A DNA stretch of 64,000 nucleotides from Octopus sinensis (taxonomy: Eukaryota): positions 62,001-126,000 of the forward strand of contig NW_021835988.1 in NCBI RefSeq assembly GCF_006345805.1, written 5' to 3'. Shown one piece after another: positions 944-50,682 of the stretch. The notes under the pieces were generated by a model, which saw nothing but the letters and a program-made list of their open reading frames with translations, had not been told where the DNA came from and did no database searches. Both the position numbers and the translations under genes were made by a program. Positions within the stretch are counted from its first letter, which is position 1. Each line of letters begins with the position of its first letter.

Positions 944-2824
944 CAGTACGACCCCGGTTTGGGGCAGACCCCATGGGTGGGGCACCCTCGGGTTTTGGGG
1001 CACCCCCGCTTTTAGGGGCAGTTTTTGAAAACAGTAAATTTTTCATTCTATTATTTATTTTTGATGACCCCGGTTTGGGGCACTTATTTAATTTATTTAA
1101 TTACAAAATGTTAGTTTATTTATTAATTATTAATTAATACTATTATTTCACGTGTTTATTTTGACTTTAGTATGGTTCGTAAAAAGAATTCAAAGATTAA
1201 TTATGAAACAAAAATTAAAATCGCTAAAGATATAAAACATGGTCAATTTTCAGAAAGAGATCTTGCTAAAAAGTATAAAACGAGCAAAGGTATCTTTTTT
1301 AACTAATTATTAATTACAGGTACTATTTCTCGCATTAAACAAAATTTTGTTTATTATTTTGACGCGGGATTAACTGAATCCGATAGAATCAAGGAATCAC
1401 ATGATCCAAATAATGAATTAGATAGATTAGTTTTTGAAACTTTTCTACGTCTGAGAGATGAATTTCTTCCAATTTCTGGAACTATCTTAAAACTGATTGC
1501 AAAAAAATTATCTAAAAAGATAAATTATGAATCATTTAAGGCATCAAATGGATGGCTAGACCGGTTCAAGAAAAGACACGAGTTGCTATTTAAAACTATA
1601 AGTGGAGAAAAGAATTCATCTGACCTTTCTACGGTTTCCAATTTTTTTGCTGATTATGACAACTGTTTGGAAACTGTAGGAAGTGAAAATATTTTTAACT
1701 GTGATGAAACAGCTTTATACATAAAGCGAACGCCGTCGAAATCTTTTGTTCAATTTAATGACAAATGCAATGGAATTAAAATGAGCAAAGAGAAAGTTAC
1801 CCTTCTCCTTTGTTGTAATGCACTTGGTGAAAAGTTAAAACCTCTATTAATTGGAAAATTCAAATCTCCTAGGTGTTTAAAAAATTTTAACGCAGAGGAT
1901 CACGGAGTACTATATGCTGCATCAAAAAATTCGTGGATGACTAGTGATATTTTTGGGAAATGGTTATGGAAAGTAAATCAAGATATGATCAATGAAAAGA
2001 GAAAAATTGTCTTAATACTGGATAATGCGAGCTGTCACAGAAATACAGAATATTCCAATGTTTATTTACTTTTTCTTCCCAAAAATACGACCGCTTTAAT
2101 TCAACCCCTAGATATGGGAATAATAAAATCCTTCAAGTCCCTCTATTTCAATAAACTGATTGATTTTACTCTTATATTTGAAAAAGAACAGCTTTCTGAT
2201 TTGAATTTGAATAATGTCAATCTTAGACAAGTCATTACAGTTGTCGGGGAGGCATGGAAAATGATGTCAGAGACAACGATAATTAATTGCTGGCAGAAAA
2301 TAAATGAAAACAGATCAAAAATTTCGGATAATGTACAGTTGGACGAAGAATTAATAGATGACGTGATTTCAGATGTTATTTCAATGGATTCGACAGATAT
2401 TATTGAGGACAAAATTACTTATGATGGATATGAATCTAAAAAATCATCAATTAAAGAAATCATAAACATCGTGAATTCTCTAGAAGATAATATTTTCAGT
2501 ACATGTCCACAATTTTTGAAAATCTACTACGAATTTAGAAAAAACCTATCAGGAGAACTGAAAAAAAACCAATTCGGTGAGAAAATTACTGATTACTTTT
2601 AATAGTATTTTTTGTTGGATTTATTAAAATTTTTAAATTTTATTAAGAAAGGACTATGTTAGAATTTTTATTAATATTAAATAATTTTAATTTATAGTCT
2701 AAAATGCAATAAAAATCTATTGAGGAGAAAATAAAAGCAAAAAATCTTTACCCTCGCATTTTGGGGCACCCCCGCTTTTTGGGGCACTATGATAAAAATG
2801 CTACCCCAAACCGGGGTCGTACTG
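944..2824 (+). mobile_element. pogo/Tigger DNA transposon, apparently intact (1881 bp)
   Basis: TIR CAGTACGACCCCGGTTTGGGG at 944 and its reverse complement ending 2824; TA TSD at 942-943 and 2825-2826; subterminal GGGGCAC repeats. Confidence 0.95.
1172..2602 (+). CDS. pogo/Tigger transposase (HTH, CENP-B HTH, DDE_1) with one 30-nt intron at 1290-1319
   Basis: ATG 1172 MVRKKNSKINYE..; the intron gtatc..tacag carries an in-frame TAA; FKASNGWLDRFKKRH, FNCDET, ILDNASCH and QPLDMGII motifs. Confidence 0.92.
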
Positions 2825-8656: not shown

Positions 8657-9362
8657 AAGGTTTTAATGGACCTCATCATGAATGTCGAGGACATTAACGT
8701 TGTTCATTTTAATCAAATGCAGAAAATAATTTTTTGATTTTTTGGCGGGAAGGTTTTAAGGACCTCATCATGTAAGTCGAGGACATCGTAGTTGTTCATT
8801 TTAACCAAAATGCAGAAAATTTTTTTTTAATCTTTTTTTGGGGGGAAGGTTTTAAGGACCTCATCATGTAAGTCAAGGACATCGTAGTTGTTCATTTTAA
8901 CCAAAATGCAGAAAATTTTTTAAATCTTTTTTTGGCGGGAAGGTTTTAAGGACCTCATCATGTAAGTCGAGGACATCGTAGTTGTTCATTTTAACCAAAA
9001 TGCAGAAAATTTTTTTTTAATTTTTTTTTGGGGGGAAGGTTTTAAGGACCTCATCATGTAAGTCGAGGACATCGTAGTTGTTCATTTTAACCAAAATGCA
9101 GAAAATTTTTTTTTAATCTTTTTTTGGCGGGAAGGTTTTAAGGACCTCATCATGTAAGTCGAGGACATCGTAGTTGTTCATTTTAACCAAAATGCAGAAA
9201 ATTTTTTTTTAATTTTTTTTTGGGGGAAGGTTTTAAGGACCTCATTATGTAAGTCGAGGACATCGTAGTTGTTCATTTTAACCAAAATGCAGAAAATTTT
9301 TTTTTAATTTTTTTTGGGGGGAAGGTTTTAAGGACCTCATCATGTAAGTCGAGGACATCGTA
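8657..9362 (+). repeat. Tandem satellite, ~95 bp unit, ~7.4 copies
   Basis: GAAGGTTTTAAGGACCTCATCATGTAAGTCGAGGACATCGTAG.. starts at 8657, 8749, 8845, 8939, 9035, 9131, 9226, 9321. Confidence 0.97.
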
Positions 9363-34170: not shown

Positions 34171-34499
34171 GAAAATAAATTTTGGGAAGATTTTTTTAGG
34201 CAGACTACACTTGTAAAAAATCGAGCATTTTACAATAATCAATGAAAAGTATTGTAGATTTACGATTAATGAAAATGTTGTATTTTAAATCATGAAATCA
34301 TCTGACATGAGTGATTTTAAACTCCCATTTGTTAAATACTTTTTTGAATTATTATGAGTTTTTACTCTTATTTAAGATTTACACCAATTTTTGTTGGCAT
34401 ACTATAATCTTTGACGATAAACTAAATAAACTATAAAATAATTAGACATGTTTTTATTTTTTTAAATACAAAAAAATTTTTAGCCAACAAAAAAATCAT

Positions 34500-36303
34500 A
34501 TAATCTTTTTAAGTCTTTTTGAGTGTATCTTTTTATGCATTCCTTCCCTGGTGCATATCATGACAAAATTATTAGATAACTTTTCAATGATTTTTACAGG
34601 TGAAGAATATGGGCTCTCAAATTTTTCTAATCTGAGAGATGGATTTGTCCCATAATCTTTTTGAATTCTTGCCTTTGAAATAACAAAAAATAACGTATAC
34701 AGTATCTCCTGCTTTCAAATCGTACTTAGAACGATGAACACCCATTCTTTTGTTCATTCGTTTGAAATAACGCGAGTCCAAATTAACCGGAACAAAATTA
34801 AAATCGAATGATTTTTCTGGCTCTTCATTAGTAGTTACAACATCTAAAAATATTTTCTATCTTGAATCAAACTATCGTCTTCGTTGTCATCAACTTGAGC
34901 ATCATGGACAACCGGATTAAAACCAAATATTCCATGATATCGCACATCTATATTATAGTTTTTATTTATAGCACCTGTCGAAGAATGCGTTTTTAAAATC
35001 ATTGTGCCGACTTCTGGCTCATCATTAGTAGTTATAAAATCTAAAAAAATTTTTTTTGAATTAAACTATCGTCTCTGTTGTCATCAACTTGTGCATCATA
35101 GACAATTGGATTAAAACCAGGTATTCCACGATATCGCATAAATGGTGTTTCATCTATATTATAGTTTTTATTTATAGCACCTGTCGAAGAATGTTTTGTC
35201 AGATTATACACATAAACCGCTTTCCTGATATGCTTAATCCAAGTTTTGTTCTGGTCTTCAAACATCATTTTTGACAAAGATCTCGAAATTGTCTGATTAA
35301 ACCGTTCTAAAAATCTCGAAATCGTCTGACTAAACCTATAATCCCCTGACTTTTAGGGTGATTAGGTCGTCCATGGATTTGTTTAACGTTATATTCCGCA
35401 AAAAGATTCGAAATGTGGGAATTTTTAAATTCCTTTCCATTGTCGGACTGAAAAAATTCACAAGGTCCGTAGTCCATAAAAATTTCTTCAAGATTTTTCG
35501 CTACTTCTACACCTGATTTGTTTTTTAAATTGCGTGTAATAGCATATTTGCTATATACATCAATGACTGTTAATAGCCACGTATATGAGTCATTATTATT
35601 CTTAAATCTATTAAATAACTTCATTAAAATGAATGCCTTTTAAGATCTATTAAGTCCATTTGAAATCTTCTGTGGGGTCTGTCTGCAATAACATGAAATT
35701 CAGAATCCGATTGTTTAAGGGGTGTGGAAAAGCGGCAAACGTCACAGTTCGAAACAACTTCACGAATGATATCTCTTTTGATTATGAAAAATCGTTCTTT
35801 GCATAGGTTCTCCAATGCGTTATGCCCACAATGATTGATTTTATGTAACTGTTCGGCAAGCATTCTCATTTGTTTAGTATCGTCCAACGAAATCACTAAT
35901 TTGTTAATGTTTCCATCTTTCAGATAAAGGTGTCCCTGAATAAACACAAAAGATTCGGCTTTCTTAATAAGCCTTCGTCTCCGGAATCTGTCATCTGTCT
36001 GTGGAATCTCCCCAGACAGGACTTTCTTTAATTCCTGATATTCAAATTGATCTTGAATAAAGCATCTTTGGTTCGATTGTGACATTGTTACAACAAAACG
36101 AAACTAAGCGTGCAACGGTATTAAAAATGTTGTATGATTCTGGTACGCCGTATAAATTATATTAGATAGATTTTATATATTATATATATTGGAATATTAT
36201 CTCAATGGTACTAACGTTATTTGATATTTTTTGTTCCATTTAATAGCTTTTAAAAAAGTCGATATGTGCGGCTCGCGCTCGCGTGCGCGTCGCGCTCGCG
36301 ACA
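34500..36303 (-). mobile_element. Ginger-like integrase-only DNA transposon with micro-introns
   Basis: LHKINHCGH..CDVC zinc finger, FQMDLIDLK, VIDVYSKY, QSDNGKEF, SQGIIER after splicing; terminus TGTCGCGAGC.. at 36303; no RT or RNase H. Confidence 0.8.
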
Positions 36304-36339
36304 TACTATAATCTTTGACGATAAACTAAATAAACTATT

Positions 36340-37075
36340 TCACTAATCACGTTGTTCTGATGCCTAACAAAGTCAGAGTCAGGCGATAGTTGAAAAATTT
36401 AATCAAACAATCACAAGGAGTTTATCCAAATTGATGGCTTCGGATGATAAAAAAGAGTGGATAAAACACATTTGAAATGCTGTGTTTTTGTACAATCAGA
36501 GAGCTCATTGATCCACATGTAAATTGGATTTTTTATTTTCTAGGCGTTAGTCCATTCCAAAGATATCATGGTATTCCTGGATTCAACACTGTTGTTGAAT
36601 TAGGTGTTGAGGAAAATCCAAAAAGTTTTGATATAGAAGAATTGGAAGTTGTAAAAATCCCGATATTTATAATAAAGGTTTTTATTGTTACTTATTAGTA
36701 AAGATGATGAGTACCGGTTTAATTTTGAGAGGATGAATTTGCAGTCTTCATATTATAGAAGAATGAATAGGAATAGAAATTGTCAAGTCTATAAATTTTC
36801 ACGTCCTTTAAAAGTTTTCAGCATTTTTTATTGTAGATTGGAGATATAAATCACCATGTGTTTGCTTCCTGTCCTAATGAACGGTTTCAGATAGATCTTA
36901 TAGACTTAAAAAGATTTTCAACTGTTAATCATGATTTTAAATGCATTTTAGCGGTCATTTATGTCTATAGCAGGTTGGTTAGTTAAAAGAATCATTATAG
37001 ATTTGCCTTCCCCAGGCCTCTTTATAATAAGTCAGGCAAAGAAGTATCGGAAAATTTAAAATCATTATTTTAAAA
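36340..37075 (+). pseudogene. Degenerate Ginger-like integrase pieces in permuted order
   Basis: IVEKFNQTITR..GVSPFQRYHGIPGFN precedes PNERFQIDLIDLKRF..NKSGKEVSENL. Confidence 0.7.
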
Positions 37076-37119: not shown

Positions 37120-38401
37120 TATACTATGGATTGTTCACGTTTGGTTTTCCAAAACAAAAGAAGTTATATAAGAAATAACAATGAATATGATCAAATCAAG
37201 TCGATTCTCCAAGGGATCGATGTAAAGACAAGAAATAGATATCAGGAAAGAAGGCTTTTGACCAAGTCAAAATCTTTTATTTAAATGACTGCCTTTATTA
37301 TCGTGTTGAAAACGGGAGTCACAAATTAGTTATTACTTCTGATGATCATGAAAAAATGAGAAGACTTTGTCAAGGAATTCACGAAGTTAGCCATTCCTGT
37401 CAAAATGAACTTGAGAGATTGTGTAGGCAAAGATTTTTTTTATTAAACGTGAAATCGTCCGTGATGTTGTTATCAACTGTGACATTTGCCGCTTTTCTGG
37501 ACCTTTAAAGGACCATGATACAGAATTTCACGTTTTTGCTAATAAACCAAATGAAAGGTTTCAAATGGATTTAATCAATCTTAAAAGGTGCTTTTTCTGA
37601 TTATTTTAGATTTTCGAGTTCCAATGATTCTTTTTCATGGCTGTTAACTTGTATTGATGTATACAGCAAATATGGATTCACAAGAAAGCTAAAAAATAAA
37701 TCTGGACTCGAGGTTTCAAAAAATATTCAAGATATATTTATCGAGCATGGACCATCTCTATATCTAGAAACAGATAATGGGACAGAGTTCAAGAATTCTT
37801 ACCTTACTGACTTGTGTGGAAAATACAACATTCTCCAAATTCACGGAAGGCCTAACAATCCACGCAGTCAAGGGATCATTGAGCGTTTCAACCAAACGAT
37901 TACGCGCAAAATCTCGAAAATGTTATCTGAGGATAGTACCAAAAAGTGGATTAACTGTATTGGAGATGGCTCAAAAGATAAAATTCAAATTCATCGGCTT
38001 AAAAAGAAAATTAATTAATTTTTTGAATTTTTATTAAAAATTTGTTTCAATTTGAGAGTTAAACACCGATATCGCAGTGTGAAACTTTTTGTAAAAAAGG
38101 TAAGAACTTAATAAAAATTCAAGTTCCAGTAGCATAATGAATCATCTTTTTTGTATTTGAGTTTTTTGTAAAATTTATTAAATGACATAAAAACAGATAA
38201 TAGATAATAAAATTAAAAATAATTACAATATTAAATTTATAAGCTAATTTTAACCTCATATTATATTTTATTATTTCAGTATAAAAGTTTTGGTAGAATT
38301 TTTTATCTGGTGCTGATCTTTTGTATAATTATTATCAATCATTATTTATTAGCGAATCAATAATGTGCGCTCAGGGCGTAGGGCGCGTTGTGCATGTGAC
38401 A
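37120..38401 (+). mobile_element. Second Ginger-like integrase element, disrupted
   Basis: IHEVSH..CDIC, FQMDLINLK, TDNG.EF, GRPNNPRSQGIIERFNQT; 3' terminus ..CATGTGACA homologous to the 36303 end. Confidence 0.78.
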
Positions 38402-47863: not shown

Positions 47864-50623
47864 TCATACACAGTCATACGCCTTATTTGCCTTTTTTAAC
47901 TGCTTCTTAACCCAATTGACAGTCTTCTTGCCGTTGGGGGTGCATGTGAGCCGGTCGTTGGTCAACAGTTGGTTGACGGAGTCGAGAGCGAAGAGGGAGC
48001 GAGTTTGTGTGGAAAACATGCCCAACATGTCCCTAGGAGTGAGAAGGTGTGGACACCCCAATAGTCCGCACAAATTTTCGAGGGTGGAAATGTCGTAAAT
48101 GGAAGAGTTGGCAGCGACGGAAGTGAGAAAGTCGAACAAGAAGGGGAGGTGTGGATTGAGGAGGGAAGAGTGTGATGCTGGTGGTTAAAGAACAAGGCAC
48201 CCGCGAGTCCCTGGACAATGCCGGTGTATGCCTGAATGCATGCTTCGTGTGTCTGTGAGAGGAGAGCGAGGCCTTGTTGTGTGGACTGGAATGAGGGAAG
48301 GGAGGACTTGGTCGAAGGAGGCGGAGGCAGCGGATTGGAGTGTGTCGAGGACGAGGGTGGCGAATGGGGCAAAGTGGTGGCCGAGTGACAAGGCCAAGTC
48401 CCCGAAGCCGGCCAAAATGACAGCCTTGAGTTTGTCGGAGGTGTGTGGACTCTGTGGAATAGTGAGGAGAGTTACGAGGAGGATATTCCAGAGAGAGGAC
48501 ATGAGAGGGGTGTGCGTAGGGGAGGATGTGTTGAGGGGAGTTGATGTCGGCGAGGAGTGCCAGACAGGCGAACAAGACCTGTGATGGGGAGAGTGGAGAA
48601 CCTGTTGGTCGTTGTGGGGTGTGAGGAGATTGAGCAAGAGGGGGAGGATGGTGTGAGTGTTAGTATCGTCGAGAAAGGGAGAGAGGGCGTAAAGGGCGTC
48701 CTCGTGGACATGGTGGTGGGCGGGGGAGGAGAGGAAGGTGGAGAGGATGTGGAAGGCAGTGTCTGCGTGTGTGAGTTGTGAGAGGGGGAGGAGGAGGACA
48801 ATGGACTGTGGTGATGGGGAGGAGTACTCTGATGAGTGCACAGAGGAGTGACTGTACGTGGAATTGATTGTCGAATTGGAGTGTATGTTGTAGGTATTGG
48901 ACGATGAGAGGGAAGTAATGTGAGAGGACAGGAGACATGTCGGGGAGTATGTTGTGTGTGATCAGACAGATCAGAGTCTCGTAGTACACCGAGTCGTAGT
49001 GTGTAGTGCAGAGGCGAAAGAGTGCGTCGAACAGATGGTGAAAGTGTGGGGAGAGTGAGTGAGGGGCAGTGGAAGCAAGAGTGGAGAGTGCCTACAAGTG
49101 AATAAGAATGGTAACGTAGCAGGCATTGGTGGCCACTCGTGGTTCGTGTGTGAGACACGTGCGGAGTGTGTGGGCAATGTCGTGGAAGGGGAGGTGGGGG
49201 ACGTGCTCGCACAACTGGCCGAGTACCCAGACGACGGTGTCGCGGACTGCCACACTGGGGTCGGTAGTGGCGAGTGTGAGGAGAAGGGGGAGGACGCGGA
49301 GGGCGTGTGGGGCAATGTTGTGGCGGACGACACAGCCTGGAGTGACACACAAACACGACCGAATGCCATCACGGCGGCCTCCCGCATATTCCAATGGGCA
49401 TGTCCGATGAACTGTTCTGCAAAGTGGAGGACGTGGGGGAGGATGTGGTCGTGGCAGCATTCGCTGAGGAGTGTGAGACAGACGGAGGCTGCTTTGGGGG
49501 GGATCCAGCAGCCGTCGGTGTCGTCATCCTCGTGTTGTTTGGGGAGGTGTGTGAGTATTGGGTATATAATGTGGGGCATGGCTGCCTGTGCGTACAACTT
49601 GGACGAGTGGGGGGAGGACAACTCCACCTCACAAATGCTCGACCAGAACTCGATTCCCTGGAGGACGTGTGACTCACTTTGGATGGCATTGAGCGTGATC
49701 TGTACATGTCATGTCCTCACTACCGGGAAGATCAAGTCGGCCATGTAGTCCTCCAAGTACTCGTAAAAGTGTGCGGCCATGACATCCAGGCACTTGAGGG
49801 ACATGTCGGCCACGTCCACGTCCGACGAGTGGCACGACTGGCAGACCACCTTCATTATCACGTCCCGTTCATTCTATCGTAGACCAGAGGAGGGGGACCT
49901 TGGCCTGCAGGAGGGGGACTGTCGAGTGGAGAGCCCTCAGTGCGGCCAATTGGATATATCCACTAAATAGGACAAACACCACTCACACACTCGCCTCCAT
50001 TCCACGCACAATCGCACTCACCAACAAGTCCGTGTGTTGGGCCATGTACGAACAGTCCTGCACTATTACCACACACCACACCAGGTCATTCGCTATGAAC
50101 CCCAGAGCCTCCAAACTGGCCTCCGTCACACGCCCCTCCATCACGTTGTTGCACAATAACACCACTCCCTCCTCCCACTCTCCAAACGCCATCTCCACAC
50201 ACGCCACCGCAGAATACACCATCGCCACACTGCTCGGTCTCCACCTCTCCTTTCCCAGTCCACACACAATCTGCCTCATTACTCACTCCTCACATTCCAT
50301 TTTATCCTCTCACGCGCCCACTCTTCCTGCTCTCTCCACCGTTGCGCCAGCCACACACGCTTCTCACTGTTCACACTCCCAAATATTATATTCTTCAATT
50401 GGATGCACGCCTGTCTACATACTACCTCCTTGCTCTCCCCCTTTATTACTTCCGACAGCTCCAACATCACTTCCGTCTACACTTTACTCACACCACCCAC
50501 TAAATTCCTTTCACACGCCTCCTCCAGCACTTCCAGGCACTTCTTCACTTCACACGGGTCTACAACTTTACACAACACTCTACTTCCCAACACTGATTGC
50601 TCCAACAACATTGACAGATCCAT
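47864..50623 (-). CDS. KPNB1: Importin subunit beta-1 with many ~23-25 nt introns
   Basis: MDLSMLLEQSV.., ACIQLKN, QRW, RPSS, SLEALGFI, QGIEFWSSICEVE, WIPPKAASVCLTLL, WNMREAAVMAFG, VRDTVVWVLG, VHEDAL, GFGDLAL, WVKKQLKK*; not every junction was checked. Confidence 0.9.
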
Positions 50624-50682
50624 CACCACACTACACTCTATTTATTCCCTCTTTTAATTCATCTAATTTAGCTAATTAATAA

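Follow-up and report, generated by a model that had tools for sequence, protein, structure and literature searches.

An exon-derived 29-nt insert as a likely young intron in a Ginger2/Tdd-like transposase gene

Known routes of intron gain and the host element

Tandem duplication is an accepted route of intron gain, with 188 events tabulated in PMC3443670. In the passages of PMC3443670, PMC4974935, and PMC2809761 that treat the subject, the source is unidentifiable for most gained introns; the criteria given in the corresponding part of PMC4974935 are a phylogeny showing the gain and an identified source. The DNA analyzed here, referred to as the window, is a stretch of 64,000 nt from the Octopus sinensis assembly GCF_006345805.1 (contig NW_021835988.1, positions 62,001–126,000). 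On its minus strand, a predicted transposase gene (34496–36085) contains a 29-nt GT-AG insert (35307–35335), which is probably a weak and young spliceosomal intron copied locally from the downstream exon, in a transposase that is probably still functional.

Similar to the gains by AGGT tandem duplication described by Rogers, the insert duplicates the adjacent exon, and the protein is unaltered after predicted splicing; the gain is seen on a phylogeny and the source is identified, as the description in PMC4974935 asks. However, the duplicated unit contains no AGGT; the AG and the GT are separated by 4 nt, and these 4 nt are missing from the upstream copy. The strict form of the model, as outlined in PMC3443670 and PMC4974935, does not apply here because of the missing AGGT. 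The insert also differs from such gains in that the whole intron is only 29 nt long, resides in a transposase rather than a host gene, and is spliced by prediction. It is likely an AGGT-free variant of intron gain by tandem duplication. In gains by break repair (NHEJ/MMEJ; a 2009 study as cited in PMC3443670 and PMC2809761), short microhomologies occur at the ends, a pattern that the junctions of this insert may share. The filler in the cited cases mostly has an unknown or distant source; that of the present insert is a copy of sequence only 4 nt away.

In Dicyema sp., introns have a median length of 27 nt (PMC6543705). The introns of the transposase family (median 26 nt, range 22–34 nt) resemble the ultra-short introns described from dicyemids and myxobolids (PMC13644364, PMC6543705, PMC6736024, PMC2222250) in size and in carrying little signal beyond GT and AG; those reports, in the parts that concern introns, describe size and conserved positions rather than gains with a readable source. 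The intron sizes fit a dicyemid host, and also a myxobolid one. A literature search, mostly without subscription papers, turned up no account of intron gain in dicyemids and none of a transposase intron copied from an exon.

The predicted transposase possesses an H2C2 zinc finger (a weak Pfam hit) and an rve integrase core with a D-35-E arrangement, and extends over 417 stop-free codons once five introns are removed. Neither a YPYY nor a GPY/F motif is present. These features, together with TIRs starting with TGTNR, AT-rich targets, and no reverse transcriptase seen inside the element, fit the Ginger2/Tdd elements as described in PMC2836005. In the same description, introns are known from Ginger1 transposases. 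The metazoan Ginger2 target duplication is given there as 4 bp, while the family here has 5 bp, as in TDD-4/5; the TIRs here measure about 40–70 bp, and the assignment is by description of features. The closest named relatives of the transposase (P0007 and P0008) are microsporidian, from Dictyocoela muelleri, at 49–59% identity, and horizontal transfer among aquatic parasites is possible.

The 5′ TIR of the window copy begins with TGTCG (36264–36303, minus strand); an initial reading of this end as an inverted segment was rejected. The 3′ TIR is absent from the window copy and present in L004, L006, and L007. At the truncated 3′ end lies a 37-nt direct repeat (34398–34434) identical to a second copy (36302–36338) that overlaps the first two TIR bases. 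The same arrangement is found in L001 (about 790–845 and 2672–2727): both copies keep the 5′ TIR without the 3′ TIR, and in place of 5-bp duplications they have long direct repeats on either side, of 37 and about 55 nt, respectively, possibly through one-ended integration. Other family members carry TIRs of the stated length, with the ends TGTCG, TGTCA, and TGTGA in L007, L018, L046, L083, and others. Reading by eye gave AT-rich target duplications of 5 bp in L007, L018, L020, L046, L049, L073, L083, and L084.

Elsewhere, the window contains an importin-beta-like gene (about 47900–50650, minus strand) with apparent introns of 21–28 nt, a composition that changes abruptly from G-rich to C-rich along its length, and no named relative above 41%; a Tigger/pogo-like transposase (about 1170–2602, plus strand) whose long open frame has an apparent intron of 31 nt; and a tandem array of about 60-nt units (8690–9360). 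A strongly divergent histone H3 open frame is located at L222:9123–9536 (minus strand).

Templated origin and lineage distribution of the insert

The first 27 bases of the insert match the downstream exon segment (35274–35302, minus strand) at 24 positions; the count proposed in the first-pass annotation was obtained again on realignment, and chance was addressed by shuffling. None of 3000 shuffled inserts scored more than 19 matches against the ±60-nt flanks, and only 1 of 3000 random 29-mers from the window reached 24. The repeat has a period of 33 nt, whereas the insert is 29 nt long, and thus four exon bases (35303–35306, minus strand) lie between the two copies and are missing from the upstream one. 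Through this loss, the GT is placed straight after the exon AG, and the frame is kept. A 33-nt tandem duplication minus 4 nt in the upstream copy predicts 26 of the 29 insert letters, including both ends, leaving three substitutions.

The GT of the insert originates inside the copied exon, and its AG duplicates the AG that the exon itself has at the junction; hence, removal of the 29 nt returns the ancestral codons exactly. The insert lies in phase 1 within the codon of the catalytic Glu. Once it is removed, the motif SQGIIERFNQTISR and the D-(35)-E spacing are regained, in agreement with the earlier claim that GT-AG removal restores the catalytic Glu, while the protein with the insert retained ends at 249 aa, before this residue. 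Furthermore, a spliced aligner guided only by the outside homologue P0008 put an intron exactly at this site.

The placement of the insert is ambiguous by 3 nt, and 1-nt microhomologies exist at its junctions, fitting break repair and also duplication followed by deletion. A single template-switching event during repair or replication could have produced it, with a jump of 4 nt forward, copying of about 26 nt, and a jump of 33 nt back, with 1-nt microhomologies. A duplication followed by a 4-nt deletion would give the same product, and the two are not distinguishable. The host spliceosome, which would need little past GT, AG, and a length of 22–34 nt, may then remove the insert from some transcripts, and such partial removal might suffice for continued transposition and fixation in the element lineage. 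Exact GT-AG bounds of this kind arise in 0.4% of random offset copies and in 2.9% of perfect tandem copies (22–34 nt, this gene), a rate which argues that the insert was filtered by selection. Because such copies are rare, the first-pass view that ordinary local duplications become introns directly is limited in reach.

The insert is not confined to one dead copy, the outcome that the first-pass annotation had set as speaking against its proposal: all seven near-identical copies spanning the site carry it (one with an extra T), and so does a diverged variant (8 of 173 bases, roughly 5%) in the sequencing runs X1 and X2. A search with the flanks and a gap of 0–30 bases gave six genomic matches on five contigs, all insert-bearing and with the same letters. 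Some copies contain many indel errors, as an assembly or sequencing artefact would have it, but the repeated exact genomic matches, along with the presence of the insert in contigs of the two runs, which derive from one study, refute this explanation and leave it a negligible chance.

Among the 38 distinct sequences at the site, 36 are insert-free, and the two with the insert both belong to this subfamily; in 41 further matches, only the window copy has it. The nearest insert-free relatives that span the site share about 70% protein identity, and the insert maps to one tip clade in both a quick tree and a FastTree tree. In three other copies (L008-minus, L010, and L098), a deletion runs across the site. 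L007 carries the insert together with a pair of TIRs and a target duplication of 5 bp, which dates movement of the subfamily to after the gain of the insert. Two further segments in the window, a broken fragment (36340–36560, plus strand; 72% identity, 103/143) and an integrase core (37575–38018, plus strand; 65% identity, 226/346), had been called sister copies lacking the insert. The insert is indeed absent from both, but their strand and identity do not fit sister status; by sequence, they are members of other subfamilies, serving as outgroups that polarize the gain rather than as pre-insertion alleles.

No insert-free allele was found by gapped-pattern, mismatch-pattern, DNA, or protein searches. 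The description as an intron gain caught in the act is borne out in the templated origin and in the gain on this lineage, but is overstated, since these searches gave no such allele and the variant diverged by about 5% already bears the insert. On the family tree, the gain is recent, but fixed rather than polymorphic.

An older intron of other origin, for example one slid from a site 4 nt downstream and made exon-like by later local conversion, was also considered. One distant clade of the family carries an intron only 4 nt away, at profile position 236.2, another clade has one at 232.0, and the variants differ at sites pairing the intron with the exon (35290 and 35330), as conversion could cause. 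However, all intervening lineages lack an intron here, the introns at 236.2 are AT-rich and unlike their own flanks (scores 5–7), and the duplication model accounts for the whole length and both ends; such an origin is very unlikely.

Transcripts and signs of function

The window lies in an assembly of 2.7 Gb, and the element occurs in only two of the 18 listed runs, X1 and X2, as expected for a passenger organism. The transcript analysis covered four of the 18 runs; about 4% and 24% of the raw RNA runs X3 and X6, respectively, yielded 0 reads, a result that carries no weight, since nothing places the organism in those runs. The kind of X1 and X2 is unrecorded, and assembled contigs only were examined. 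Both behave as RNA, displaying four skips with GT-AG or GC-AG ends, two in sense and two in antisense. One sense skip is an older 29-nt GC-AG intron (35608–35636, minus strand), removed in X1 and retained in X2, which bears out the earlier proposal that segments of about 29 nt can be spliced out in this host. Its donor is GC, where the relative L010 has GT, and the GC donor is still spliced in X1. The other is a 223-nt GT-AG skip (34844–35066, minus strand) in one X1 contig, with a short side of 28 nt, which takes out an internal duplication of about 200 nt in frame, by pairing a donor and an acceptor that belong to different copies of a short intron. It constitutes a second splice rescue of a duplication within the same transposase gene; in L005, one unit of this duplication is lost at the DNA level. 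A skip across a duplication spanning intron–exon borders is similar to the potato RdRp intron in the account of PMC4974935, unlike the focal insert, which is exon-only and inherits no prior splice signals.

Two older GT-AG introns are predicted in the same gene: one of 27 nt (35154–35180, minus strand) at a position common to the clade, and one of 28 nt (34673–34700, minus strand) at a widely shared position, which is still present in those X1 and X2 contigs that span it. The antisense skips are of 66 nt, spanning the insert (35291–35356, plus strand; one X1 contig), and of 28 nt (34702–34729, plus strand; one X2 contig); the latter was rejected as a sense intron. Antisense splicing at GT-AG pairs inside coding sequence suggests a permissive spliceosome.

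A skip of the focal insert was found in none of the 11 X1 and X2 contigs, a sample in which contigs drop variants and antisense transcripts are present. Its unspliced acceptor junction is bridged by two X2 contigs and its unspliced donor junction by one X1 contig, the latter from a run that shows splicing of the upstream intron. One of the two variant haplotypes, that seen in X2, has lost the acceptor AG (35307). These counts argue weakly against efficient splicing of the insert; older introns are themselves retained in three of five testable run-by-intron cases, so that retention of the insert fails to discriminate. New introns are less efficiently spliced in Paramecium bursaria, according to the relevant part of PMC12862383.

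A splice-score model was trained on the 66 other introns of the family. The insert is the best of nine nearby GT-AG pairs, at 8.5 bits, above an antisense segment seen spliced (4.8). Its length and its GT-AG ends match those of the other family introns. However, its score falls below 58 of the 66 older introns, in the weak tail of their range (2.8–19.8), its substitutions brought no gain (8.5, against 9.6 with the exon letters), and a 21-nt GT-AG pair within the exon copy competes with it at 7.4.

The absent spliced junction, the lost acceptor AG, and the weak score would all be expected if a frameshifting duplication had killed the gene, with the subfamily then non-autonomous on a related transposase and the GT-AG ends arising by chance. 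Most copies are truncated, deleted, or frameshifted, the TIRs of another subfamily start with the same bases, and local duplications are common, accounting for 14 of 83 paralog indels of 18–45 nt. Against such a history stand the otherwise unbroken 417-codon frame, for which the probability of no stop is 0.07–0.003 under 4–9% neutral drift, the rarity of exact GT-AG bounds, the retention that older introns show as well, and a synonymous bias downstream of the insert. In the insert-bearing X1/X2 variant, the spliced frame makes four of the seven downstream differences synonymous, compared with two and one in the other frames (Fisher p = 0.024; p about 0.2 when only transitions are counted); this selection signal is small, and recombination could have produced the variant. 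The lineage is constrained, with dN/dS of 0.22–0.24 against L010 and L008; these values have no bearing on the insert because both relatives are deleted across the site. On this balance, death by frameshift is a serious but unlikely account, and a weakly spliced young intron in a working transposase is the preferred one.

Local duplication as a source of introns

The 66 other introns of the family occupy 17 positions, measure 22–34 nt, have a median GC of 0.21, and are old; linker positions that aligned poorly, introns longer than 35 nt, and near-duplicates were left out of this set. The first-pass annotation had proposed that short introns be compared with their flanks against shuffles. Applied to these introns, the comparison gave three with p < 0.05 and none like the insert, the best score being 10.5 against 19.5 for the insert; a looser set gave similar values, with p < 0.05 in 4 of its 64 other rows and a best score of 11. 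Because these introns are old and AT-rich, any flank signal in them would have decayed.

A scan for a second case covered 1.52 Mb of DNA, a small part of the passenger genome. Among its 83 paralog indels of 18–45 nt, there was no clean presence/absence intron, and two GC-AG placements were rejected as lying inside repeats. The 70 two-copy local duplications in the same DNA showed no GT-AG excess: six were GT-AG-bounded and frame-restoring, compared with 4–11 for eight control dinucleotide pairs. The five of these six besides the focal insert proved on inspection to be a coding repeat or transposon junctions and debris. The general inference is thus not supported in this sample, in which the tests have low power for old introns and amount to no refutation. 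That short, locally templated insertions are a routine source of new introns in animals with tiny introns is a quite doubtful proposition.

In the family as a whole, introns occur at about 18 positions, mostly clade-specific, three of them within 14 nt around the catalytic Glu. Examples of clade-specific positions are 144/277, 164, 178/232, 155/236, 44/134, and 282 (L001–L124 and further loci). Such a distribution, as read from the sequences, points to repeated intron gain inside the transposon family. If locally templated insertion were indeed routine, the transposase family would be a running record of intron births, in which only the present insert, the most recent of them, can still be read.

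The insert combines a tree with a source, and shows a route to precise gain without an AGGT site. Simultaneously, a multi-copy family with branch-specific intron positions makes intron age, splice strength, and splicing efficiency comparable in one gene and one host. If splicing of the insert is confirmed, the question of whether minimal splice signals ease intron birth would become testable.
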